Virus record (IMG/VR): IMGVR_UViG_3300045988_148145
Source of the DNA: a virus
Strand: one strand, 5' to 3'
Length of the DNA stretch: 56,785 nt
The translations under genes were made by a program, and so were the position numbers. The first letter of the stretch is position 1. Each line of letters begins with the position of its first letter. This document shows, piece after piece, positions 14,020-56,630 of this stretch. A model generated the notes under the pieces. That model searched no databases, was not told the DNA's origin, and saw only the letters and a list, made by a program, of their open reading frames with translations.

Positions 14020-14869
14020 CACCCAAATATCTACGGACGGAATGGCTGAATATTATCTTAATAATAAACCTCTTTCTGATTTTGGTATCGTACCATCTCG
14101 TAGCAACAAGCATATAGCTTTGTCGGGATGCTTTGACCTTCCTAAAAGAATTGGTGACACTTATTTTGACTGGCCTCGTGAAAACGGTGTAGATCCTTAT
14201 GTAGACGAAAGCGATATTCAATTTGACTCAAGAAGCATTAGATTCACCGGGTACATTATCGGGAATCTTGAATTAAATGTTCGGTCTTTACAAAATTACG
14301 TTTTAGCACTACCTGAATTATCCATGCTATCTTGTAAATGGGGGTCATGGAATGTTAAAGTCAACAAGAGCATAGACATCACCCCTATTGACAAAAATAA
14401 CGCAAGAATAAGCATTTCATTCGTTGAACCAACTCCAGATTTATCCGGAACATTACCACCTATATCAACGATCAAGGATATTGATGATTATTCTTGGAAA
14501 TCTTTAGGTTTATACATTGAAAAAATTAATGGGAGTTTTAATATTAAACCTCTCAAATCCCTTGACGTGACTCAAAACCCGGATAGAACAATTCGATCAA
14601 CAGGAGGAGAAGACAAGGGCAAGGTTACTATTTCGGCTCACGTTGTAGCAACTTCTTTTGAAGATTTCAAATCAAGAATAAAATCGCTATACAGATTATT
14701 CGGAAGTACTGGACTAAGAACAATAAATTATCGAGGCAGATCTATTTATTGTTTTGCTATTAATGGATTTACCATCACGAATGTTATCATGAAAGATATT
14801 ATCGTGGCAAAATTCACGTGCGAGCTAATTGAAACAAGCAAAATGATCAATGCAAATGAAGACATATAG
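14009..14869 (+). CDS. putative distal tail protein (Dit-like)
   Basis: ORF directly upstream of the Tal-like giant gene. The start is uncertain: ATG 14009 or 14042, while the track uses TTG 13994. Confidence 0.45.
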   Translation: MLHATQISTDGMAEYYLNNKPLSDFGIVPSRSNKHIALSGCFDLPKRIGDTYFDWPRENGVDPYVDESDIQFDSRSIRFTGYIIGNLELNVRSLQNYVLALPELSMLSCKWGSWNVKVNKSIDITPIDKNNARISISFVEPTPDLSGTLPPISTIKDIDDYSWKSLGLYIEKINGSFNIKPLKSLDVTQNPDRTIRSTGGEDKGKVTISAHVVATSFEDFKSRIKSLYRLFGSTGLRTINYRGRSIYCFAINGFTITNVIMKDIIVAKFTCELIETSKMINANEDI

Positions 14870-17800
14870 CATATACAGGCTAGGCGTAAAGAAGCACGAT
14901 TTCGTAATAGAAGATGATGACATAAGACGTTCGATGTCTCACGATAATAACGTGTCATTTAATGTTGAATCAAAGGATAGTCTTGACATCAAAATAGGGG
15001 ATTACATCATAGAAGACGGTAGCCATTACACTATTTATGACCCTATTGACGTGGAAGAAAGTAATGGGGTCTTCTCCTACCCTCTTGTCTTTCGTTCTCC
15101 TGACTATAAGTTGAAATTTTCCATTGTGAAAGACGAGGGAGCGACCACATTCCCTTATCACGGGGGAATAAAAGAATTCGTTGATCTTGTAATATTATCC
15201 TTGAACGAGGATCAACAAGAATACACTGCAGGGGATATTGACGAGGGTAATATTATCGATCTCGAATTTGACAATAGCTCTTGTTTCCAAGCTCTCGATG
15301 ATATATGCGAGGCGGCAAACATGGAATGGAACCTTATAGGCACTAGTATTAACGTGAAATACCGTATCGGGAAAGACGTGGATGTAGTGTTCGAATACGG
15401 CAAAGAGAAAGGTGGATATTCGGTTAGACTTGATAAAGTACAAAACACATCAATCGTAACCCGGTTAATTGGGAAAGGTGGAACGATTAACCTTCCCAAA
15501 GATTATGTGTCCCCCGACACGCCAAAGCGGTTGAATTTAGGGAACGAGATACTAGAAAAGAATATTGACAAATACGGCAAAATCACGGGTGTTTACACGA
15601 ACGATAATATATATCCACGACTAATAAATAAAACCGTTTTAGAAGTAACAATTCCAGAAGATATAGAAAAAGCAACTTCATGGAAGTTAAAACTTGATCT
15701 CCCGTTTGATCTATCACAACAATACGCAGATGATAAAACTCCATTAATAAAATTCCAAACAGGAGATCTAACCGGAAGTGAATTTGAAATTGTTGATAAT
15801 AGCTGGAATAACACTGATAAAACGTTACAAATCATCGTTCAAGAAGAAGAGGATGGTTACAGGCTGCCTAACACAAGTAGGCAACCTAGAATTGGGGACG
15901 TTTTTGTCTTGCTAAATATAAATATGCCTCAATCCTACATTGACGAGGCTGAAGAAGAATTAAGAAAAGCGACACAAGAAGAATTAAATAAAAGGAGTGA
16001 ACCACAATACGCTCCAAGTGTAAAAGTTAGTAAAAGATTTTTACGAAAAAAAGGTTATTCTCTTGAAATTGGGGATAGCATAACAGTAAAAGTTGGTGAT
16101 CATAGCATTAACACTAGAATATTGGCGATAAACCAATCTTCTAGTAGTGACGAAATAAACTATGAGCTTGGTGACGAAATATTGTATTCTTACGAGGATA
16201 ACGTGAATAATCAAATCGAACAAATACAAGTTACATTAAAACAGCTTATCAGTTTAGAAGATGTTCGAAGATTATTTAATATCCTTATCAACCAGTGGAG
16301 ACCGTTATGGTTCGATCAAAAGCTCCACACTTATGATCCGGTGGAGTTCAATAGCGTTACCTCCCCTCTTTTCATCTTCAACGAGCTTACCACTCCGGAG
16401 TTCGTTTCGGGCCTTCTCGGTGCCGGGACAAGGCTAAAGGACAATCACCTTGAACTCGACGAGATCACCGTGAGGAAACGCATGAACGTCTTCGAGTTGT
16501 TGATCCAGCGTGTTCGTGCCGTTGGAGGCCAGTTACTCCTGTCCCCGGCAAGTATCAAGATTTCAACCGTGGAAGAGCTAGAGAACGGTTACAAGTGTTC
16601 CTTCAACACCGATGACCAGACCATCCCAGAGCCTTTCGTGTTAAACGACCAAGCCTTTCACCAGACGTTTACAGGGAAGGGTATAAACCGTTACTGGCGT
16701 TTGACAACCGAGGCGGGAGACGATTACTTCGTCTTGAGTAAAACGGATTGCGAACCGGGTTCGGGGATACCACAACCCGGCGACGAGGTGATCCTGCTCG
16801 GTAACAGGACGGACAAGGCTCGTCAAAGTGCCATGATGCTCAGTGCTTACGGTAACGATGCCCCTTACCTTGACACTTACGACGGTATAAACGATTATAA
16901 CCTTAGCGGTAAATTGCTTACTAGAGAGGGGAACCTAACCGGGATAGTGGATGAAGTGTTCGGACAATTATCCGGTTCTGGATTCTACGGCAAGAACGTT
17001 TACTTGAGGGGGAAATTCGCCCTCTCTTCCGGTGTCAGCGTGGAGGACAAGTTCGGTCAAACCGATTCTCAAATGAACAACTTGCAAGGACAATTAACTA
17101 ACCAGCAAGGGCAGTTAAACACGCAGCAGGGACAGATAACGAACATTCAAACGGACATACTCGCAATCCCCGGACAGATCAAGCAAGAGGTGTCGCAAAC
17201 CGTGACGTACGAGGTCGGCAACCTCCAAATCGGCATGGTCAACCTGTTGAAGGGGAGTAACGTGGAGCTTGGGGCGCAGGCGTACAACATGGGTAGGTAT
17301 TATTACGACAAGAAGCCGGAAGTTGGCAAGACATACACGTTAGTCACTTGTTACACACTAGGGGAAGATAACACGAGTATCGGGGCATATCAAGATGGTG
17401 GTAGTTACTTTATTTCTAGTTTTACAACTAAAGGAGATAGGGTTGTTGAAAGTAAAACGTTCAAGTATTCGACTCCCAGTTCTCCAACCATGATGACATT
17501 CTACCAGTTCCCCAACGGCACCTACGGCAGTAAAGTACACTGGGCTGTACTAGTGGAAGGTAACAAGGGACCCAATAGCTGGATACCGTCACAGGCTGAC
17601 AATGATGCTAAAGCCCAAGCCATCGCCAAGGCCGAGGCAGAACTAGCAGAGACCAAGGCAAATGCCTACGCTGACGGTATCGTGACGGAAGCGGAGCAAA
17701 ACGCTATCAACGAGGCGCAGGCTAGGCTAGACGCTTTAAAAATCGGATCCGTAAACCTAGTGAGCAGGAAGATGATGCTCGCCTGGAACGAGAAGAACAA

Positions 17801-20800
17801 GGATATAGCGGTGTGGGGACAGGATTCTGATGGGATATACTTGGCGATAAATCAAGGACTCCTTTACACGAATGTTAGTGGTGGAACATCGAGACTAGAT
17901 TGTTTTCTCGGGGAAGGTAAATACAAAGCTAACACGCAATATGTTTTTTCAGTAGAATGGAAATTAGCAGGAGCGCAAACTAGTAATGGCGTATCTTTTT
18001 GGGCAACCTACACGGATGGAACAAATGATGGAATACGACTGGATGGAGCGAAAACCTCTTTAATTAGAGAAAGTTTTATCACGGCAAAGGGGAAAACAGT
18101 AACAAAGATATATGCTTCAGTTGGAGCCAATACTTACCGTTCCCTTATCTACTCCCTCGCCCTCTACGAGGGTAACAAGGTCTTGGCCGAACCTCCTGTT
18201 GCGACTGAAGACCTAACCGGGCAGAGTAACGTGAACCTCGTGGACGGGGGGAAAGAAGTGACGGTAGCAAGTGACTATTATAGCACGCTTAAAGTACCCG
18301 TGCTAAAGCCTAACACCGTGTACACGGTTCGGTTTACCAACGTGGAGGTAATATCTGGAGATACCCCTTCCGGGTACGAGTTCAGGTTATACGACACGGG
18401 GTTATCCGCCAATTACAGCACGGTAAAAATAAAAGCTGGAGATAATCACGGGATATTAATTACCTCTAATAACTTTACCGTTCCAATAGAGGGAAGATTA
18501 CTCTTTTATCCCGGTATACACTCCGAAGGGATAGCACGGAGTGTTAAATACACTGAAATCATGCTCGTCGAGGGCTTCACCCCTCCTTCTTCTTACTCTC
18601 CATCACCGGGGGACGTGCAAAAAGAGATTGATGACGTGAGCGATGCCGTTTCTAATCTGGACACCACGATTAACACCACGTTCAAGGACGGTATTATCAG
18701 CGAGGCAGAGGCGAAAGCGATAGCTTCAAACATAAACGTGTTAAACGCAGAGAAGGCGGATATTGACGCTTACTATACCAAGTTGTACGCTAACGCCTAT
18801 CTAACCGGTACGGCTAAAACGAACCTCGCAAGCGCCAAGACGGCATACAACACCGCTCACACGAACTTGATCAACTCGATCAACACGGCTATCGCAGACG
18901 GGAAGGCAACGGCAACGGAGAAAGCAGACGTGGACGCTAAATTCTCCGCTTACAATAACGCTTTATCCGCTTACCAAACGAGGGTCGGGGAAGCGGACAA
19001 GGCGATACAGGACACGATAAAGAAAGTTGCGGATGATGCTCAAACATCGGCCAATACTGCCCAATCAGCCGCCAATGCCGCTCAATCAACGGCGAATCAA
19101 GCGCAGGCTGACGCTAATGCAGCAAATTCAAAGCTAGCAACTTGGGCGAGCGATAACTACATCTCCCCGCAGGAGAAAACTGGACTGAAACAACAGAAGA
19201 GCGATATACAAGCGGAGTGCAACGATATTGTAGCGAACGCTAACAGGTACAATATTTCATCAACGTCCTACTCGACGGCGTATAATTCTGCCATATCCGC
19301 TTTAAACAAGTACACCGCAACGTCACCGGAGAACATAGCGGTGAGTTCTGATTACAATAACATAGCGGCCTACTACACCGCCCGTCAAACCATCCTTAAC
19401 TCGATAGCGGCAGCGGCGAAAGCGCAAGCCGACAAGGCAACCGGGGCGATCGGCATGGACGGGGGGAAGATGCTGTACGCTGACCCAGAGTTCAAGAAGG
19501 GATTAAACAATGTGTACAAGTATACCAATTCAAGTAACGTGGATCCTGACTATATAGCGTCTAAACTAACGGTAGAGAGAGTTACCAAGCCATCGGATGC
19601 CCCGACACAATCCGGGTACTGCCTGAAAGTCACGTGTAAAGCAGCTCAAGCACCCGGGTATGGCGGGGTGCACCAGTCTATAACTTCCCGGGCGAATGCC
19701 GTGTTTGTGCAAAAAATTATCGCCAAAATACCTGTTGGTTATAAAATAAATACAGCTTCCAATAGCATGGGAACAGGTTACACTGACACGTGGCTAACTC
19801 CCACGGAGGGTACAGGGAAATACACGACGTACCTTCGTAAGGTTGTCTGCGGGACAACCGGAAATTTTAGCTCAGGCGGACACGTGTATATAACCGGTAG
19901 CCCCGCTCCCACCGAATCCGCCCCGTTAGAATGGTATATCGCTTACATGACGGCGTTCGACCTGACCGCCGACGGGTACGGGGACATCGTGGAGATAGCC
20001 AAGACCGAGACCGTCGCGGGGATAAACAACAACCCGGACTCCGTGACCGTTTACGCCAAGAAGACCGATTTTAACTCGTTAAATCAAGTTGTCAACCAGC
20101 AAGGTTCTCAATTACAAGTCAACACGAACAGCATTGATGCTATCGTCACGAAGAACGGAAGCGGGACGATTGTTTCTATTAAACCGGAGATGGTTGAGAT
20201 CACGGGGGCCACGGTGATAAAAGACGGTAACGGGAACAAGGTTAATATATTCGGTATAGGAGACAAGGTTATATCGGTGAACGGCGGGGTGTTCTCCGTT
20301 GACAAAGCTGGTAAGGTTATCATGCAAAATGCAGAGATTGCCGGGAAGATTACAGCTAAAACCGGACAAATAGGTGATTTCACGATAGATGGGATATGGT
20401 TAAAAGGAAGTCAATTAAGAATATCCGGGAGTCAAATAACATTTGAAAACGGTAACAATCAAGTTTACTTAAATAGCCACCCGGACATGACAACTGGCGG
20501 TGCAGTGAAGCTTGGGACATTCGTTTTGACGGGAGGTAGTTATAACGGACTGGAAAGTGCACGAGCTGTCGCCTTGATAGCTGCTGCCCCTAGCGATAAT
20601 TATTCTTGCGCAATAGCAGTCACGAGCGGTAGGGTTCTCATGAAAGGCCAAATCCACTTTGACAACGTGGTTACTTATACTGGAAGCGGTGCGGTTACCA
20701 TAACTGCTGACTCTGGACATTTCATTTATTTAACTCCCATAACTGGTAATCCAGTGGTTAGCGTGTCTTCCGGTTTGCCTATCGGGAGCTGGTTTATTAT

Positions 20801-20987
20801 AGCACATGCAACAACTGCGGGAGGCTTTTATTACATCAAGCTGAGTGGATCGGATCGTTTTAGACGGAGAGGTAACGCATATCAACAGGTAAACTCGAAT
20901 AACCAAGATCCATCTTTGATATTTAAAGTCAATAATACCACGTGGGTCATTGGGAATTTACCCGTGAACTGGATAGATTGGAATTAA
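14850..20987 (+). CDS. tail-associated / host-specificity protein (Tal-like N terminus, multi-domain fibre)
   Basis: 2045 aa. It has a prophage-tail-like N terminus, Q-rich heptads (LQGQLTNQQGQLNTQQGQITNIQ), three segments each ending in EGNK/VEGF, and long Ala-rich coiled coils. Confidence 0.7.
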   Translation: MQMKTYSIYRLGVKKHDFVIEDDDIRRSMSHDNNVSFNVESKDSLDIKIGDYIIEDGSHYTIYDPIDVEESNGVFSYPLVFRSPDYKLKFSIVKDEGATTFPYHGGIKEFVDLVILSLNEDQQEYTAGDIDEGNIIDLEFDNSSCFQALDDICEAANMEWNLIGTSINVKYRIGKDVDVVFEYGKEKGGYSVRLDKVQNTSIVTRLIGKGGTINLPKDYVSPDTPKRLNLGNEILEKNIDKYGKITGVYTNDNIYPRLINKTVLEVTIPEDIEKATSWKLKLDLPFDLSQQYADDKTPLIKFQTGDLTGSEFEIVDNSWNNTDKTLQIIVQEEEDGYRLPNTSRQPRIGDVFVLLNINMPQSYIDEAEEELRKATQEELNKRSEPQYAPSVKVSKRFLRKKGYSLEIGDSITVKVGDHSINTRILAINQSSSSDEINYELGDEILYSYEDNVNNQIEQIQVTLKQLISLEDVRRLFNILINQWRPLWFDQKLHTYDPVEFNSVTSPLFIFNELTTPEFVSGLLGAGTRLKDNHLELDEITVRKRMNVFELLIQRVRAVGGQLLLSPASIKISTVEELENGYKCSFNTDDQTIPEPFVLNDQAFHQTFTGKGINRYWRLTTEAGDDYFVLSKTDCEPGSGIPQPGDEVILLGNRTDKARQSAMMLSAYGNDAPYLDTYDGINDYNLSGKLLTREGNLTGIVDEVFGQLSGSGFYGKNVYLRGKFALSSGVSVEDKFGQTDSQMNNLQGQLTNQQGQLNTQQGQITNIQTDILAIPGQIKQEVSQTVTYEVGNLQIGMVNLLKGSNVELGAQAYNMGRYYYDKKPEVGKTYTLVTCYTLGEDNTSIGAYQDGGSYFISSFTTKGDRVVESKTFKYSTPSSPTMMTFYQFPNGTYGSKVHWAVLVEGNKGPNSWIPSQADNDAKAQAIAKAEAELAETKANAYADGIVTEAEQNAINEAQARLDALKIGSVNLVSRKMMLAWNEKNKDIAVWGQDSDGIYLAINQGLLYTNVSGGTSRLDCFLGEGKYKANTQYVFSVEWKLAGAQTSNGVSFWATYTDGTNDGIRLDGAKTSLIRESFITAKGKTVTKIYASVGANTYRSLIYSLALYEGNKVLAEPPVATEDLTGQSNVNLVDGGKEVTVASDYYSTLKVPVLKPNTVYTVRFTNVEVISGDTPSGYEFRLYDTGLSANYSTVKIKAGDNHGILITSNNFTVPIEGRLLFYPGIHSEGIARSVKYTEIMLVEGFTPPSSYSPSPGDVQKEIDDVSDAVSNLDTTINTTFKDGIISEAEAKAIASNINVLNAEKADIDAYYTKLYANAYLTGTAKTNLASAKTAYNTAHTNLINSINTAIADGKATATEKADVDAKFSAYNNALSAYQTRVGEADKAIQDTIKKVADDAQTSANTAQSAANAAQSTANQAQADANAANSKLATWASDNYISPQEKTGLKQQKSDIQAECNDIVANANRYNISSTSYSTAYNSAISALNKYTATSPENIAVSSDYNNIAAYYTARQTILNSIAAAAKAQADKATGAIGMDGGKMLYADPEFKKGLNNVYKYTNSSNVDPDYIASKLTVERVTKPSDAPTQSGYCLKVTCKAAQAPGYGGVHQSITSRANAVFVQKIIAKIPVGYKINTASNSMGTGYTDTWLTPTEGTGKYTTYLRKVVCGTTGNFSSGGHVYITGSPAPTESAPLEWYIAYMTAFDLTADGYGDIVEIAKTETVAGINNNPDSVTVYAKKTDFNSLNQVVNQQGSQLQVNTNSIDAIVTKNGSGTIVSIKPEMVEITGATVIKDGNGNKVNIFGIGDKVISVNGGVFSVDKAGKVIMQNAEIAGKITAKTGQIGDFTIDGIWLKGSQLRISGSQITFENGNNQVYLNSHPDMTTGGAVKLGTFVLTGGSYNGLESARAVALIAAAPSDNYSCAIAVTSGRVLMKGQIHFDNVVTYTGSGAVTITADSGHFIYLTPITGNPVVSVSSGLPIGSWFIIAHATTAGGFYYIKLSGSDRFRRRGNAYQQVNSNNQDPSLIFKVNNTTWVIGNLPVNWIDWN

Positions 20988-26895: not shown

Positions 26896-27420
26896 ATGCA
26901 AGGAAATAACTTTTTCTTCACGGGAGGGGATCCGTTACTGGGTCAATCTCCCGGCTACATGGAATCTCAATTCCAAGAACTAGAGAGGATGCAGGCGGCC
27001 ATCGAGCAAAAGAAGAAGGCGATGCTTCAAGCCAAGGAGCAGATGTCGAGACAAGAGCAACACCCGAGTCAAAGTCAAACCCCTGTTTGGGACGAGATCG
27101 AGAGTATCGTGTCCGGGATGACGGACAAGGAATTCGAGATCGTGACGGGTAACGAGGAGTTCGTCGAGAGCCAGAACGCCATCATGTCTATCTTGCAAGC
27201 GAAATACATGCAAATGATGCGTCCAGTCGTGGAGGGTTCCCCAGAGGGGAAAGACGCCCTTGACAAGCATCTAACGCTTGTAAAAAGGTTGCGCAAGTCG
27301 GCAGCCTCGGAGGTTGACAAGGAAATAAGTGATTTTCAAGAGTACAAGGAAAAGTATCCGGACATACCGTATTCGGAGTACCAGAAGATGAAACGTTCAA
27401 GCAAGGGAGGTAAAAAATGA
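26896..27420 (+). CDS. hypothetical coiled-coil protein
   Basis: 174 aa from ATG 26896. The track ORF starts upstream at 26674 and overlaps the previous gene. Confidence 0.5.
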   Translation: MQGNNFFFTGGDPLLGQSPGYMESQFQELERMQAAIEQKKKAMLQAKEQMSRQEQHPSQSQTPVWDEIESIVSGMTDKEFEIVTGNEEFVESQNAIMSILQAKYMQMMRPVVEGSPEGKDALDKHLTLVKRLRKSAASEVDKEISDFQEYKEKYPDIPYSEYQKMKRSSKGGKK

Positions 27421-27848
27421 AAAAAGAAGACCTTAACCAGTTCAAGGGCGAGGTGAAAGACGCCATTCGCTCGTGGGGAGAAAGCAAGATTGATTCTATT
27501 TTTCCTAAAAAAGCTCAAGCGAGGACGTTTTTCAAGAACGGCTTCAACAACTTGTTATCAAGGGAAGATTCCAGGGTGAACAAGTGGTTGGACACCGCCT
27601 TCTTGTTTATCGCAAACGAGGATGGAACCGTTGATAGTGATGTCATGATTGACACTCTAGCCGGGTTGTTTCAAGAGATGGACGTTAAAGAATACAAGCA
27701 TGGCATGATTAAAATGGTTGTCGGTAAGGGAGAAGCCGTGATAAGCCTCCAGCAAAACTTCATGCTTGATATGCTCGTGGGAGATTTGGGCAGCTTGAAA
27801 TTCACTGTTGCTGACATACAAGAATTAAAAGAGTTTTTTAACGATTAA
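27417..27848 (+). CDS. hypothetical protein
   Basis: 143-aa ORF with ATGA overlap to the previous gene. Confidence 0.55.
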   Translation: MKKEDLNQFKGEVKDAIRSWGESKIDSIFPKKAQARTFFKNGFNNLLSREDSRVNKWLDTAFLFIANEDGTVDSDVMIDTLAGLFQEMDVKEYKHGMIKMVVGKGEAVISLQQNFMLDMLVGDLGSLKFTVADIQELKEFFND

Positions 27849-27859
27849 AACAACAAGTT

Positions 27860-28099
27860 ATGAATGAAGAAATCATCGAACTTAGAGAAGAATTGCAAGA
27901 TCATATAAAGAGATGCAACAAGTTGCTGAACAAGATCGGGCAAAGCATGGGACAACGTGGCGGTAACCAAGGTTATGGGCAACGTGGCGGTCAAATGGGC
28001 TACCGTGAGAACGGGGGACAATGGAACGGTGGAATGAACGGGGGCATGAACGAGCGTGTTGATCCGTTTTTCCCGGGGTACGACCCACGTTTCATGTAA
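27860..28099 (+). CDS. hypothetical low-complexity G/N/Q-rich protein
   Basis: 79 aa, containing QRGGNQGYGQRGGQMGYRENGGQWNGGMNGGMN. Confidence 0.45.
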   Translation: MNEEIIELREELQDHIKRCNKLLNKIGQSMGQRGGNQGYGQRGGQMGYRENGGQWNGGMNGGMNERVDPFFPGYDPRFM

Positions 28100-28150
28100 T
28101 CAAATGTAGAACGGGGGACGGGAAACCGCCCCTCTTAAAATTATACCATC

Positions 28151-28573
28151 ATGTGTAAACAGGCATTAAGTAGTTTTAACTACATACCGCAAGAGATGAG
28201 AGCGTACCTCAGGAATTACGGGTACTCGTTCTCGAAGAGAGCGTGCGAGTACGCCGTGAACCAGATGAAGCGAAAGAACAACGCCACCGGGAAACTGGAA
28301 AACATAGAGCCGTATTCTAAAGACAAGGCGGAAGAGTTGCTATCCAAGAACGGGGTAACACTGGAGAACAACGTTGGTTACAACTTCGTGTACGTGATGA
28401 ACATGATTCTCGCTGACCGGTGGAAGTCTAGCGTGGAGGACGAGCTGCACTTGTGTAAAGCGGTGAAAGACGAGATTGATGACGTTGACGGGGTACCGGA
28501 AAGCGTGTTCCGTTGCTGGATAACCAAACAAGAAGACAAGGGTATTCCTATACCCTGGGAAGACATGATATGA
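28151..28573 (+). CDS. hypothetical protein
   Basis: 140-aa ORF. Confidence 0.55.
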   Translation: MCKQALSSFNYIPQEMRAYLRNYGYSFSKRACEYAVNQMKRKNNATGKLENIEPYSKDKAEELLSKNGVTLENNVGYNFVYVMNMILADRWKSSVEDELHLCKAVKDEIDDVDGVPESVFRCWITKQEDKGIPIPWEDMI

Positions 28574-29022
28574 TCCGGCAGGAGTTAAATATCACCGTTA
28601 AAGGTAAAAAGTGGCACGTCACCGCTTTTTACCCCGTCACCAGGTATCACGTGAACGAGATCATGCGCACGTTAAAATCTCTCGGGTGTGATAGCTATAG
28701 CTTGAAGCGGGCGTACATGAACCTAGCAACGGGGCAGGTAAACAACGGGTTAACTTTCAGTAATTTCTTCTCCCGGGAATCCGTGGTCGTGTTCGCCATG
28801 TCAACGAGCCCGGAACAATATTTTAATCTGATCGTTCACGAGCTACATCACTTGTCAGTACACGTTGCCGTGGCGAACGGGCTAGACCTTGAAGGAGAAG
28901 AGACTTGTTATATTAACGGGGATATAGCGCAAATGATGTTCCCGACTATCAAGAGATTGATATGTGATTGTCACGATAAAGATATAGATGTAAAACTTAA
29001 AAACACGCTCCATGAAAAATGA
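28570..29022 (+). CDS. hypothetical protein with an HExxH motif (possible metallopeptidase)
   Basis: 150 aa from ATG 28570, which overlaps the previous stop. It contains VHELHHL. Confidence 0.4.
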   Translation: MIRQELNITVKGKKWHVTAFYPVTRYHVNEIMRTLKSLGCDSYSLKRAYMNLATGQVNNGLTFSNFFSRESVVVFAMSTSPEQYFNLIVHELHHLSVHVAVANGLDLEGEETCYINGDIAQMMFPTIKRLICDCHDKDIDVKLKNTLHEK

Positions 29023-29165
29023 CGCTAATTTATTGTATTTAATGGACTTGCTGGATAACGAGTGTATCGCCGGGGTCGCTGCTATAATCATAGCGGAGAT
29101 GCTCGCTATCGTTTGAAAGCGGTTAAACAGTTACTTGAAGTGTGGCACGATTGGCGGCGTGTTAG

Positions 29166-29190
29166 AGGGGCGGGATGCCCCTTTATTTTT
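29166..29190 (+). terminator. Intrinsic terminator ending the plus-strand late block
   Basis: Hairpin AGGGGC-GGGAT-GCCCCT followed by TTTATTTTT. Confidence 0.65.
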
Positions 29191-29203
29191 GGTATATAAA
29201 AAA

Positions 29204-29242
29204 AGAAAGTGAATTAAAGACGGCAATCCTGATTCACTTTCT
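29204..29242 (-). terminator. Intrinsic terminator of the minus-strand three-gene cassette
   Basis: 11-bp stem AGAAAGTGAAT/ATTCACTTTCT. On the minus strand it is followed by T7 (plus-strand A run 29197-29203). Confidence 0.6.
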
Positions 29243-29306
29243 TTTAGACTATTATCTAATTCCCCAATTAGACTAAGGCTTCTCTCCTTAGGTGTATAAT
29301 AGTTTA

Positions 29307-29711
29307 TTACTTACTAGCATTTGTAAAATTAACTGGGGGCAAGATTATTGCTCCTATTCCAGATTTTAATGTAATATTCGTAATGTGCTCTCTTATAAAC
29401 GGGGAAATAATAGCAGCCCCATTCACTTTTCCAAATTCATTAAAATCACGAATGATAGATTCTCCGATAGATTCAAAAATACCAATCATTTTCACTTTTA
29501 TATTCACTTGCTCAACCTCATGATATTTCTGTACAAGTATTACTTCTTCGGCCACGATAATAGAACTTCCATTTACCGAAACTTCGGTATTTATTTCTAC
29601 GTCATTTTTAGCATCCTCGCCAAATTGTACATTGTTTATTCGTGAAAAATGACTCTCCACCAGTAATAGATTAGTAATCTTGAATCCTGATTCCAGCTTG
29701 TTATTTCCCAT
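29307..29711 (-). CDS. SecB-like chaperone
   Basis: 134 aa. GIFESIG and ISPFIREHITNITLKSGIGAIILPPVNF align by eye with E. coli SecB GIFSIAG and [29 protein letters not shown]. Confidence 0.6.
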   Translation of the reverse strand: MGNNKLESGFKITNLLLVESHFSRINNVQFGEDAKNDVEINTEVSVNGSSIIVAEEVILVQKYHEVEQVNIKVKMIGIFESIGESIIRDFNEFGKVNGAAIISPFIREHITNITLKSGIGAIILPPVNFTNASK

Positions 29712-29713
29712 GA

Positions 29714-30175
29714 TTATGCCGCATTTAAGTATGAATAATTTGTGTATTCAACGGGAATATTAGTTTCCTCGATTGTGTTTAATTCTGGTTGTGATTGATT
29801 ATACGTAAATAAAAGATTGTGTTTTGTTAATTTACGAGAAATCTGTACACTTGACATATCAAATACAATTGATTTCCTCTCCACGGAAAAAGGAGTATAA
29901 TACAATCCTTCTTTCTCGAATACCGGACTATCTATTTTCACTAAAGAATCATCAGAAATAAAACAAATATTTTCAGAAGGATATTTACTAATAAATTCAT
30001 CAAATGTTTCACTCTCCCACTCTATATAATCATCATTTTGTTGATAAATTTCTATAGGTAACACCTCAATCATATGAGATCGAGACTTTTCATCGTACTC
30101 GTAACGAACTTTCGAACTTAAAAATACACTAATGAAAGATTCTAATTTCCCAATAATATAATCTACTGCATTCAT
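29714..30175 (-). CDS. hypothetical acidic protein (candidate antitoxin/partner); no family recognised
   Basis: 153-aa ORF, separated by 2-3 nt from both neighbours. No nucleotidyltransferase GS...DxD motif is present. Confidence 0.55.
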   Translation of the reverse strand: MNAVDYIIGKLESFISVFLSSKVRYEYDEKSRSHMIEVLPIEIYQQNDDYIEWESETFDEFISKYPSENICFISDDSLVKIDSPVFEKEGLYYTPFSVERKSIVFDMSSVQISRKLTKHNLLFTYNQSQPELNTIEETNIPVEYTNYSYLNAA

Positions 30176-30178
30176 GAT

Positions 30179-30574
30179 CTAATATTTTTTTAGAATTGGA
30201 AGAATATCTTTTGATAAAGATAGCGAATTTGAACTTTTCGAAAAATCAAACATGCTATCATCATAATCGGCGGTTACTCTAAGTTTTTTTAACTGCACGA
30301 TCTTCGTGTTAAATTCTCTAAATTCTTGATTCGAATTATTTTTAATATACTTTCCAATTTCGTTAATTAAAAATTCATGAGTTCCAACTTTATTAATACT
30401 ACATCTCGATTCTAGTTCTGTCTGTGTTTTACGCATACTATATATCCAAATATGCTTTAATAACAGGAAACAGCTATAATAAGCACTATGACCAACAGCA
30501 GGATAATAATTACTTTCATGTGATAGTTCTACAGAAGCAATCAACATTTCTGATTTATTTTGAAAGTTGCTCAT
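30179..30574 (-). CDS. HEPN-like domain protein (candidate toxin)
   Basis: 131 aa from ATG 30574 (the track uses TTG 30628). The layout SNYYPAVGHSAYYSCFLLLKH...GTHEF...LRVTADYDD resembles HEPN four-helix domains. Confidence 0.5.
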   Translation of the reverse strand: MSNFQNKSEMLIASVELSHESNYYPAVGHSAYYSCFLLLKHIWIYSMRKTQTELESRCSINKVGTHEFLINEIGKYIKNNSNQEFREFNTKIVQLKKLRVTADYDDSMFDFSKSSNSLSLSKDILPILKKY

Positions 30575-30639
30575 AAATATTAATATTGCAATCCTTTGTT
30601 GTACCTGATGCCGCAAATTTAAATCCAATATTTAATTAT

Positions 30640-31125
30640 TACAAGTATTTCTTTGGGTTTTACGAAAATATTTGTTATTGGTTGCATTAGACAGCAACAA
30701 AAAGCGGCCCCCGTTTCCAGAAGCCGCCGTGGTGCCACTCTAACTTGCATCACTCGCCACACGGCACATCTAGCATAGTACGTTTAATTGTTACATGGTG
30801 GGTATTTCTCTAAAACCAGAGCGGGATCCAATGGTATTTCGGCGAGACACCAAATATCGAACCTCTCGCTAATCACGAGTGGCGATATGTCGATTATAAC
30901 TTGTTTTGTTTCGTTATCCATAAAAAAGTGGCTTAACGTTCGCTGTCAGCAAGGAATCGCCAGAGACCTAACAATCAAACTACTAGCCAAGCCACCGTAT
31001 AGGAAGCCCAACTAGCTCATTTGATTGTTCAAATTTGAAACTGGCGATTTCTGCTGAACAATGAACTAGTTCGTAATATCTTCTTGGCACACCTTCACGT
31101 GCCGTGGTGCAAAGATATAAAATAT
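30640..31125. ncRNA. candidate structured RNA or cis-element; ORF-free and G+C-elevated
   Basis: No ORF of 60 aa or more on the minus strand. A nested long hairpin spans 30954-31050, with two 10-bp stems. Further hairpins lie at 30704-30727, 30842-30869 and 31086-31103. The 10-nt direct repeat GCCGTGGTGC occurs at 30726 and 31101. Confidence 0.35.
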
Positions 31126-31126
31126 T

Positions 31127-31312
31127 TTAATAACACTTGTCTGATATGAAATTATCCTTCCCGTACTTCGTTATCCAATCCCGCGTGATTTTAATTCTAT
31201 GCTGGGGATAACAAAAAGTGCGTGATTCGACGGAAAACCACAGGAAACCCAGTCTTCTCCGGTAGAGGGTTATCACGCTACCCCTTGTCTCGATCTTGTA
31301 CACTCTTTTCAT
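31127..31312 (-). CDS. hypothetical protein
   Basis: 61-aa ORF, the last gene of the minus-strand early operon. Confidence 0.45.
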   Translation of the reverse strand: MKRVYKIETRGSVITLYRRRLGFLWFSVESRTFCYPQHRIKITRDWITKYGKDNFISDKCY

Positions 31313-55359: not shown

Positions 55360-56556
55360 TTATTTATTAATCAAAAGATGATCAATAACTTTTCTATTAG
55401 CTTCTTCTACTTTCTTTCTATCGAATTTTATATAAATATCCGTGACACTATTGGAAGAGTGACCTAAAGCTGCAGCTATCGTTTCTTTTGGAATATCAAG
55501 ACTCGCCGCAATAGTTGCCCATGTATGGCGGGACCAGTATGAAGAGATTCCGGGAAATTTAGGTGTCACGTGTTTCTTGCCTCCTAATCCTTTACGCTCG
55601 ACATCCCCGATTTTCTGAAGACCTATATTCATCCGGTGCAAGAAATCCTTGTAGTTCTTGTAATCATCTAAAACATTAAGCATGTATTTCCCCTGTCCCC
55701 TGTATTTCTCAATAATTTTCAACGCTTCCGGTTCCACTTTTATCTCGTACAAGCGATTCGTTTTCGCCCGGTGAAAAACAATTTTATCGCCTTTTAACGC
55801 GGGAAGATTAAACAAATCCACGGCATTAATGCCCATCAAGTAAAACATCAACATGAACATATCCCGGTATCGTTCTTGATACTCCTCCACGTCAAAATTC
55901 ATCAACTCCCGCAACTCTTCAACAGACAACGACCTTTTAGCTGTTTCCTCTTTTTTTATCTTGTACTTCCTGAACGGGTAAATATTAGTGTACTCGTTAT
56001 CTATAGCGTAATTAAAAACAGAACGTATGTTCCTGAGGTGAATTCCTATCGTGTTTATCTTGTTATCACGCTCAAGTAGCCAGTTCTCGAATCGGATTAA
56101 CCATTCCTTGTTGATTGATTCAAAAGTCGCATATTGATCGAATTCCAGGATCTTGCTTTTCGTGTGAGTGTAAACAGCAATCGTCCCTTCCTTTGTCTTG
56201 GTATCAATGAACTCGTCCAAGCATTCAAGAAAACTAATACCTTCCAGTTTACCGGAAATCTTTTTCTCTATAATATCCTTCAACCTCTCGTTGGAAATCG
56301 AGTACGACTCCCCCCTTTCTTCCACGTCAAAAATAACTTTCTCAACCTTGTTCAAAATATCTCTTAATCGCACGTTCTTCGCCCTGTGATTTGGCTCGTT
56401 TGAAGTAAACTTATCGGAATCCCAATTATCAATAATAGAAGACAGGCCTGTTTTTACCAAAAAATATTTTCTATTTTTGCTAACGTAAATTTTCACGGGG
56501 AAAGACCCGTCTTTCTTTTGAGATCTTGTATCGAGGTAAATTTTTGCGCTTATCAT
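55360..56556 (-). CDS. int: tyrosine integrase (Bacteroidota phage/CTn type)
   Basis: 398 aa from ATG 56556 (the track uses TTG 56589). It has an arm-binding-like N terminus ISAKIYLDTRSQKKDGSFPV and a catalytic SRHTWATIAA...LGHSSNSVTDIYI. It lies about 140 nt from the att core. Confidence 0.9.
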   Translation of the reverse strand: MISAKIYLDTRSQKKDGSFPVKIYVSKNRKYFLVKTGLSSIIDNWDSDKFTSNEPNHRAKNVRLRDILNKVEKVIFDVEERGESYSISNERLKDIIEKKISGKLEGISFLECLDEFIDTKTKEGTIAVYTHTKSKILEFDQYATFESINKEWLIRFENWLLERDNKINTIGIHLRNIRSVFNYAIDNEYTNIYPFRKYKIKKEETAKRSLSVEELRELMNFDVEEYQERYRDMFMLMFYLMGINAVDLFNLPALKGDKIVFHRAKTNRLYEIKVEPEALKIIEKYRGQGKYMLNVLDDYKNYKDFLHRMNIGLQKIGDVERKGLGGKKHVTPKFPGISSYWSRHTWATIAASLDIPKETIAAALGHSSNSVTDIYIKFDRKKVEEANRKVIDHLLINK

Positions 56557-56572
56557 ATTTCTCACCAATTTT

Positions 56573-56630
56573 TTGCAAACTATTTGCAAACAAATGTACG
56601 AAAAAACGGGTAAAAACGGGTAAAAACGGG
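56573..56630. promoter_or_regulatory. attP arm: two TTGCAAAC sites (56573-56580, 56584-56591) plus 3 x 10-bp tandem AAAAACGGG[T/A] (56601-56630)
   Basis: Direct reading. The octamer is shared with 106-113 and 136-143. The repeat period of 10 bp equals one helical turn. Confidence 0.45.

Follow-up and report, generated by a model that had tools for sequence, protein, structure and literature searches.

What does a temperate Bacteroidota phage gain from a three-gene cassette that ends in a gene for a SecB-like protein? The cassette lies in the IMG/VR virus record IMGVR_UViG_3300045988_148145, which was analysed over its full length of 56,785 nucleotides (nt); this whole stretch is referred to as the window, and all coordinates are positions within it. 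Open reading frames (ORFs) on the minus strand between positions 29307 and 30574 define three co-oriented, closely packed genes in the order g1, g2, g3. An original prediction, made from the sequence alone, proposed that these genes encode a HEPN-like protein, a partner of no recognisable family and a SecB-like chaperone, and that together they form a toxin-antitoxin-chaperone (TAC) type of system. Evidence from folds, from the anatomy of the g2 protein and from the co-conservation of the triad supports that interpretation in silico, none of the three computational outcomes that would have spoken against it was obtained, and we conclude that the cassette is probably a tripartite TAC module of an undescribed family. 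It is a known kind of system assembled from a new combination of components, and not a new kind.

Folds and anatomy of the three proteins

The genes occupy positions 30179–30574 (g1, 131 amino acids (aa) from an ATG), 29714–30175 (g2, 153 aa) and 29307–29711 (g3, 134 aa), all on the minus strand, and are separated by 3 nt (g1/g2) and 2 nt (g2/g3), in agreement with the gaps of 2–3 nt first reported. The G+C content of the coding block is 30.3%, compared to 40.7% for the whole window; the AT-richness noted originally is thus real, the hand-counted 33–35% being slightly high. The order of predicted toxin, predicted antitoxin and SecB-like chaperone, which is identical in every intact related locus, is that of all known TACs (PMC3581621).

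The product of g3 had been said to resemble SecB along its length, and profile alignment bears this out: the alignment of a g3-family profile with E. coli SecB runs from one end to the other (1qyn; positions 1–131 on 1–134, E-value 1.2e-8). The Pfam SecB model, PF02556, matches g3 itself at an E-value of 7.4e-5 (23.1 bits, the gathering score being 26), and at the level of the family it is carried by all but one of 120 listed homologues (167 were found). A stronger match is to PD-T4-9_C, the PADLOC model for CmdC, the chaperone of CmdTAC (E-value 2.7e-11); PADLOC CmdC models are matched by all 31 aligned family members. In contrast, the score against the housekeeping-SecB equivalog TIGR00809 is 23.4 bits, where the cut-off is 102.8, and g3 likewise falls far under the cut-offs of four other NCBIfam SecB equivalogs. 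Chains of E. coli SecB have 153–155 residues, and g3 stops where the last 20 or so begin; the segment that it lacks includes the SecA-binding tail. We know of no housekeeping SecB in Bacteroidota. Judged by these profile comparisons g3 is a SecB-fold protein, nearer to CmdC models than to housekeeping SecB, and we predict that it serves as a dedicated chaperone of the SecB-TA or CmdC-like type.

The g1 protein is basic (isoelectric point (pI) 8.8) and is the predicted toxin, with a putative RNase activity. It scores 21.8 bits against the Pfam HEPN model PF05168, which has a gathering score of 22; the same model is matched by 16 of 29 family members at E-values of 0.01 or lower (best 7.9e-6), and one member matches Pfam HEPN_AbiV. 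No PADLOC model matches g1. The AlphaFold2 model (predicted local distance difference test (pLDDT) score 97.9) has the four-helix, up-and-down core of the HEPN fold, and the top nine PDB matches returned by Foldseek are all HEPN proteins (template modelling (TM) scores 0.52–0.73), with AF_0298 (2hsb; TM 0.70/0.73) the best among them. The HEPN-like layout first suggested for g1 is in this way upheld by its predicted fold.

The tyrosine that the original prediction had placed where RNase-type HEPN proteins carry a histidine is also confirmed: in place of R-x4-6-H, g1 has R99-V-T-A-D-Y104, located where the third core helix (residues 82–104) ends. Nine positions are invariant among 29 g1 sequences of 44–89% identity, namely H29, Y32, Y33, C35, H66, R99, A102, D103 and Y104, and of these H66 lies within an insert between core helices 2 and 3 (helices 51–61 and 65–80). 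AF0298-like HEPN-T proteins and AbiV are known to have lost the histidine while keeping the arginine, and possess an alternative conserved histidine, in the insert that separates core helices 2 and 3, which possibly constitutes an alternative active site (PMC3710099). On the basis of the model, g1 has a HEPN fold of the AF0298/AbiV-like class, and the invariant H66 and H29 fit the subclass with the alternative histidine. A recent PDB entry named 'HEPN domain-containing protein' (9xbd) contains the same R-x3-D-Y motif (LRNRSDYD), and 9xbc is a variant of it in which the tyrosine at this position is changed to phenylalanine. This suggests that the motif tyrosine of a related HEPN protein is already under study by others.

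For g2, which is acidic as stated previously (pI 4.46), the failure of the first reading to recognise any relative is matched by the databases: neither the protein nor its family has a match in Pfam (searched with 93 members), NCBIfam, PHROGs, PADLOC or, by profile, the sequences of the PDB. Searched with a profile, 1.84 billion cluster representatives nevertheless yielded 1239 relatives (representatives at 50% identity), 564 of them at E-values of 1e-10 or lower, most of which align only over a stretch running from position 1 to about 95–150. The AlphaFold2 model, built from the 93-sequence alignment, shows the reason for dividing the protein in two. Residues 1–90 are modelled with pLDDT values of 94–98 in the order alpha-beta-beta-alpha-alpha-beta(-beta), whereas across the last 58 or so residues (96–153) the values drop from 84 to 54, and here the alignments are poorly conserved and variable. 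The N-terminal domain (residues 1–95; 29891–30175, minus strand) is the predicted toxin-neutralising core, with H34 and E37 invariant and W53-E54 nearly so; the C-terminal tail (residues 96–153 and the stop codon; 29714–29890, minus strand) is a predicted chaperone-addiction (ChAD) segment. A fold search with the model gave no PDB match at an E-value of 1e-3 or lower. The best matches are weak and KH-like (Jag/KhpB, NusA, RbfA and DnaA-N), and the order of secondary-structure elements tentatively fits the type II KH topology; the best viral match is to a 90-aa uncharacterised phage protein (TM 0.80).

The tail ends in a conserved feature. Among 114 representatives of the g2 family that are at least 140 aa long, 96 (84%) terminate in Ala-Ala, compared to only two of 34 shorter representatives and none of 166 g1 and g3 homologues. 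Over the final six residues the family consensus reads N-Y/F-x-L-A-A; the last six codons in the window (29717–29734, minus strand) specify S-Y-L-N-A-A, that is, a protein ending in YLNAA. The native SsrA tag of Bacteroides is GETNYALAA, and causes strong degradation of reporters in Bacteroides (bioRxiv 10.1101/2025.03.18.644028), and in HigA1 of Mycobacterium tuberculosis a ClpX degron resides inside the chaperone-addiction region (PMC8165232). At the level of sequence, the terminus of g2 resembles an SsrA-like degron and matches the end of the Bacteroides tag. A folded acidic N-terminal domain, a disordered variable tail and a C-terminal degron together make up the anatomy of a TAC antitoxin. 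A canonical antitoxin core of the HigA, MqsA, HicB or HTH-like (helix-turn-helix-like) type is absent from g2; since CmdA also lacks one, such a core is a typical rather than a defining feature of TACs.

Co-conservation of the three genes

If the three genes are parts of one module they should be found together elsewhere, as the original prediction itself pointed out. To define the composition of related loci, hidden Markov models of the three proteins were run on the six-frame ORFs of every locus fetched. Loci were located with a g2 motif derived from a nine-sequence alignment, the 93-sequence alignment having no conserved stretch. In the genome collection this anchor found 21 loci, almost all from Bacteroidota, of which 17 are complete triads in the same order; the other four lie at contig ends or are decayed, such that all 17 intact loci are triads. 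The viral collection gave 33 loci with 26 complete triads. Searches anchored elsewhere produced the same picture: four of four loci found from g1 homologues (the most divergent included), both informative loci found from g3 homologues, and the single locus found from a distant g2 of 180 aa all hold the triad. The order and spacing of the genes therefore recur whichever gene serves as anchor, in phages and chromosomes of Bacteroidota and in other mobile elements.

These loci bear on the scope of the finding. The triad is present on a temperate Bacteroidota phage, but the surveyed sequences indicate that the module is not phage-specific and is widespread in Bacteroidota chromosomes. It was found across gut and environmental Bacteroidota, and among its neighbours in other loci are restriction enzymes, a DNA methylase, a Rep_1 replication gene, a PIN gene, HNH, RloB/AAA_21 and AAA_15.

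A second class of loci separates the parts of the module. At three independent loci (L081/82, L085/86 and L087/88) a clear g1 homologue comes first (E-values of 1e-45 to 1e-56, and an hhalign probability of 100% in the case of L081), and the gene after it encodes a short g2, of 101–120 aa, that matches the N-terminal domain only, with neither the long tail nor the Ala-Ala end, and SecB was not found in the available downstream DNA of any of the three. Every SecB-linked locus examined has a tail and, apart from L054 alone (discussed below), no SecB-less locus does. Because the two-gene loci lack tail, Ala-Ala and SecB alike, the comparison of sequences indicates that the HEPN protein and the N-terminal domain of g2 are the core pair, and that the degron-bearing tail comes and goes with the chaperone. 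The relationship between two-component toxin-antitoxin (TA) systems and TACs has been demonstrated experimentally by the grafting of ChAD segments (PMC5105189); in their gene content, the two-gene and three-gene loci mirror a plain TA pair and a TAC.

The N-terminal domain of g2 also occurs alone. Six phage contigs (L037:5992–6267, L040, L041, L042, L046 and L059) encode a solitary 91-aa version with its conserved residues intact, no tail and no Ala-Ala end, and within the 8.7–12.3 kb of each such locus (at least six contigs) there is no match to HEPN or SecB. On L037 the gene is situated between a weakly DUF5678-like ORF and a convergent gene with a SocA/Panacea antitoxin domain (PF13274, E-value 2e-15).

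One further locus differs in the arrangement of the core pair. At L035:5548–6474, on a viral contig, g1 and g2 are read as one ORF, in which other residues take the place of the last 12 or so of g1 before the frame enters g2. Either the two genes are naturally fused here or the assembly is in error; a real fusion would argue for a physical complex of the g1 and g2 proteins.

An autonomous unit in a variable slot

The cassette ends in an intrinsic terminator of its own (29204–29242, minus strand), as originally described, consisting of a 13–14 bp stem followed by U7. The hairpin has a folding energy of −17.1 kcal/mol (z = −5.2), and none of 200 shuffled sequences folds equally well. A terminator-like site of the upstream minus-strand operon is located at 30703–30728 (minus strand), where it forms the left boundary of a variable slot, and another, at 29163–29185 (plus strand), closes the plus-strand late operon. 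Given its own hairpin, and the separate terminators of both neighbours, the cassette constitutes its own unit between converging operons, which is the location first assigned to it.

The evidence for a promoter is comparative. A Bacteroidota-type −7 box, TAAATTTG, was read from the sequence at 30614–30621 (minus strand), with cTTG at 30642–30645 (minus strand), 20 nt upstream of the box. Within the window the motif TAnnTTTG is at chance level, occurring 53 times where 56.7 are expected, and accordingly we used it comparatively only and never as stand-alone evidence. Among 34 distinct regions upstream of g1 homologues, however, it is found within 120 nt of the gene in 25, mostly at −18 to −47, compared to about two expected by chance as estimated from its frequency in the window. 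The −7 box claimed for the cassette is therefore unremarkable by itself and gains its weight from recurrence: because the motif recurs before g1 despite unrelated flanking DNA, the module apparently carries a Bacteroidota-type promoter of its own from place to place. The box also bears on the start of g1. The ORF extends to a TTG at 30628, and a 149-aa version appears in some public gene calls (cluster representative P0008); the −7 box falls inside this longer ORF and the alignment of homologues begins at the ATG, which together indicate that the 131-aa start at 30574 is to be favoured. A scan for sigma-70 promoters, a model unsuited to Bacteroidota, returned fewer matches than shuffled sequences did.

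The carrier is a temperate siphovirus-like phage: the window has genes for the major head protein, the tape measure, the large terminase, the portal and a DnaB-like helicase, and for an integrase at 55360–56589. A sister phage, L073, allows the slot to be defined. It is 96–98% identical to the window over 27000–29191, in the hairpin segment 29196–29260 (kept at 98% identity despite the different cargo) and from 30699 onwards, and in place of 29261–30698 it carries unrelated genes; none of g1, g2 and g3 has a match in L073. Since so close a relative holds other cargo at this position, the cassette is a swappable moron, an autonomous unit in a variable slot, and the slot itself suggests a hot spot of accessory genes. 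In L073 the segment equivalent to window positions 29192–30698 (L073:5680–7764) encodes, on the minus strand, a 199-aa protein and a 90-aa Asp/Glu-rich protein, both without a Pfam match, and, on the plus strand, a further 0.9 kb or so of genes, one of them for an HTH_3 protein. A blastn search of the region against GenBank phages gave no match.

Proteins from Butyricimonas virosa share 90% clusters with g1, g2 and g3 (at least 90% identity), and g3 is 100% identical to the representative of its cluster. Their accessions are consecutive (RGY21338–40) and their names are 'HEPN domain-containing protein', 'hypothetical protein' and 'preprotein translocase subunit SecB'; in NCBI records, the HEPN domain and SecB labels are thus already attached to g1 and g3, respectively.

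Elsewhere in the window, a very long ORF of 2045 aa (14850–20987) forms part of the plus-strand late operon, further downstream than the genes for terminase, portal and tape measure.

Proposed mechanism and alternatives

How might such a module operate? We propose that g1 is a HEPN toxin, probably an RNase, in which Arg99 and the alternative His66/His29 would stand in for R-x4-6-H, and that g2 is the antitoxin, the acidic N-terminal domain of which would bind and neutralise g1. The disordered tail of about 58 residues would be the chaperone-addiction segment ending in the SsrA-like degron. By holding this tail, g3 would keep the antitoxin soluble and shield the degron from proteases of the ClpXP type. 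Were the chaperone to be titrated away, the antitoxin would be degraded, the HEPN toxin freed and the cell arrested. By analogy to HigBAC and CmdTAC, the chaperone may be titrated by a structural protein that an infecting phage makes in abundance, and for a prophage the likely benefit is then the exclusion of superinfecting phages.

Several observations weigh against this interpretation. The Foldseek matches of g1 have weak E-values (best 0.017) despite their high TM-scores and their consistency, and both g1 and g3 of the window score just below the Pfam gathering scores. Without the canonical histidine of R-x4-6-H the catalytic activity of g1 is not assured. The locus counts are not phylogenetically independent, many viral loci being near-identical. 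Unlike HigA, MqsA and HicB, g2 has no recognisable DNA-binding domain, and for this reason autoregulation of the cassette, if any, must differ. Finally, L054 (L054:175–615) encodes a 146-aa g2 that ends in ALAA and is not followed by a SecB gene. Downstream of this gene are ORFs of 129 and 502 aa that by their appearance may encode terminase subunits, and the contig end cuts off the side upstream of g2.

The alternative with the most to recommend it accepts the TAC and differs in phenotype only: the module would serve addiction, that is, post-segregational stabilisation of a mobile element, and not defence against phages. It does reside on mobile elements (a prophage here, beside a Rep_1 element in L070), the copies in L008 and L087 sit among housekeeping genes with few defence neighbours, and it was as stress-responsive TA systems that the classical TACs first entered the literature. 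Nevertheless, CmdTAC and MqsRAC, the two TACs assayed for it, and also HigBAC protect against phages, several chromosomal copies stand beside restriction or Abi-like genes, and in the sister phage a different accessory cargo fills the slot. We regard addiction in place of defence as rather unlikely; as roles, stabilisation and superinfection exclusion are in any case non-exclusive. A more radical departure would make g1 an inactive HEPN protein, an RNA- or protein-binding adaptor, and the cassette, for example, a chaperone-assisted regulator or a folding aid for phage proteins. The replacement of the canonical histidine by tyrosine invites this view, and the paper on the HEPN superfamily calls motif-less HEPN domains likely to be catalytically inactive. 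Loss of function is difficult to reconcile with nine invariant positions in 29 sequences, R99, D103, Y104, H29 and H66 among them, placed as in the AF0298/AbiV class with its proposed alternative active site; moreover, a basic g1 next to an acidic g2, a degron-bearing partner and the existence of two-gene variants are typical of TA systems. An inactive g1 is accordingly improbable.

The remaining alternatives concern g2. Polarity could be reversed, with the N-terminal domain of g2 as the effector and the HEPN protein as inhibitor or sensor, given that the g2 fold is without a characterised relative and that the polar H34, E37 and W53-E54 could be catalytic. By the logic of TA systems, however, a partner with a degron and a chaperone-bound tail is labile and hence the antitoxin. 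The solitary g2 domains of phages are compatible with a harmless antitoxin, not with a toxin, which standing alone would be lethal, and every g1 in the loci examined was accompanied by a g2. We consider reversed polarity very improbable. It is scarcely more credible, and if anything less so, that the cassette is type VII-like, with g2 a divergent minimal nucleotidyltransferase (MNT) that AMPylates Tyr104 of g1 as in MntA-HepT. The conserved tyrosine in the HEPN motif would suit such a system, and the g2 model has weak Foldseek matches to MntA (6m6w_A and 5yep_A; E-values 0.4–0.7). Yet these reach a TM of only about 0.3, KH-like proteins are better fold matches, no G-S / D-x-D signature was seen among the conserved columns of g2, and none of 93 family members matches a nucleotidyltransferase Pfam model. 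The nucleotidyltransferase fold also has an order of secondary-structure elements that differs from that of g2. We therefore rejected an MNT-like reading of g2, in keeping with the original statement that it is not the usual partner of HEPN toxins. A type III system with an RNA antitoxin was likewise considered, and is unsupported: an Rfam scan of 28800–31200 found nothing. The window contains no tRNAs.

Relation to known systems

A TAC of the kind proposed here has its closest counterparts in the classical systems (HigB1-HigA1-SecB-TA, Rv1955–57; MqsRAC; HicAB-SecB). These have in common with the cassette the order of toxin, antitoxin and SecB-like chaperone, an antitoxin having a variable, disordered C-terminal extension with a degron (hydrophobic and of the ClpX type in the classical systems), and the existence of chaperone-less two-gene relatives. 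They differ in that the toxin of the cassette has a HEPN fold, and not that of RelE/HigB, MqsR or HicA; in that the core of g2 is a new alpha/beta domain, with no helix-turn-helix or ribbon-helix-helix module; in that the degron of g2 copies the end of the host SsrA tag (NYxLAA); and in that the host phylum is Bacteroidota. CmdTAC (PD-T4-9) of E. coli supplies the closest modelled relative of g3, is similarly prophage-borne and, like the cassette, has a fast-evolving middle gene with no known domain. CmdT, however, is an mRNA ADP-ribosyltransferase, whereas g1 is HEPN-like, and neither g1 nor g2 has a PADLOC match.

HEPN proteins of the AF_0298 type and lactococcal AbiV share with g1 the fold, the loss of the histidine, the retained arginine and the alternative histidine in the insert. 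Those proteins are solitary, associated with an MNT or, in the case of AbiV, single-gene abortive-infection factors, and none is reported together with a SecB chaperone or the g2 family. Type VII systems (HEPN-MNT; HepT-MntA) similarly pair a HEPN toxin with a small adjacent protein that neutralises it, but g2 is not a nucleotidyltransferase, and neutralisation is here predicted to occur by binding and to depend on a chaperone. In HEPN-MNT operons, moreover, the MNT gene comes first, the reverse of the order in the cassette. The antitoxin families known from TACs are HigA, MqsA, HicB, MqsA-like, HTH-like and CmdA, and the toxins are HigB, MqsR, HicA and CmdT. Our search of the literature, with most subscription journals outside its coverage, found no paper that links HEPN proteins with SecB or TACs or that describes the g2 family.

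TACs are an emerging class of anti-phage defence in which few chaperone-addicted families are known (HigBA, MqsRA, HicAB and CmdTA), and almost all work on them has been carried out in Proteobacteria and Mycobacteria. To these the module adds a HEPN toxin and a wholly uncharacterised antitoxin fold, with named members from a species of the human gut, Butyricimonas virosa, and in a phylum whose defence systems have been little studied.

The two- and three-gene versions constitute a natural series for the evolution of chaperone addiction, and the SsrA-like terminus shows how a chaperone could gate the turnover of an antitoxin. The solitary antitoxin domains of phages hint at counter-defence, in that each could act as a stable antitoxin decoy against host copies of the module. 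Taken further, these features may describe a new family of TACs, widespread in Bacteroidota, in which the antitoxin is held on a hair trigger by a copy of the host SsrA tag that only its dedicated SecB-like chaperone can mask, and which some phages counter with tail-less, degron-less decoys that would neutralise the HEPN toxin; we put this forward tentatively, as a possible but doubtful account of the family as a whole.

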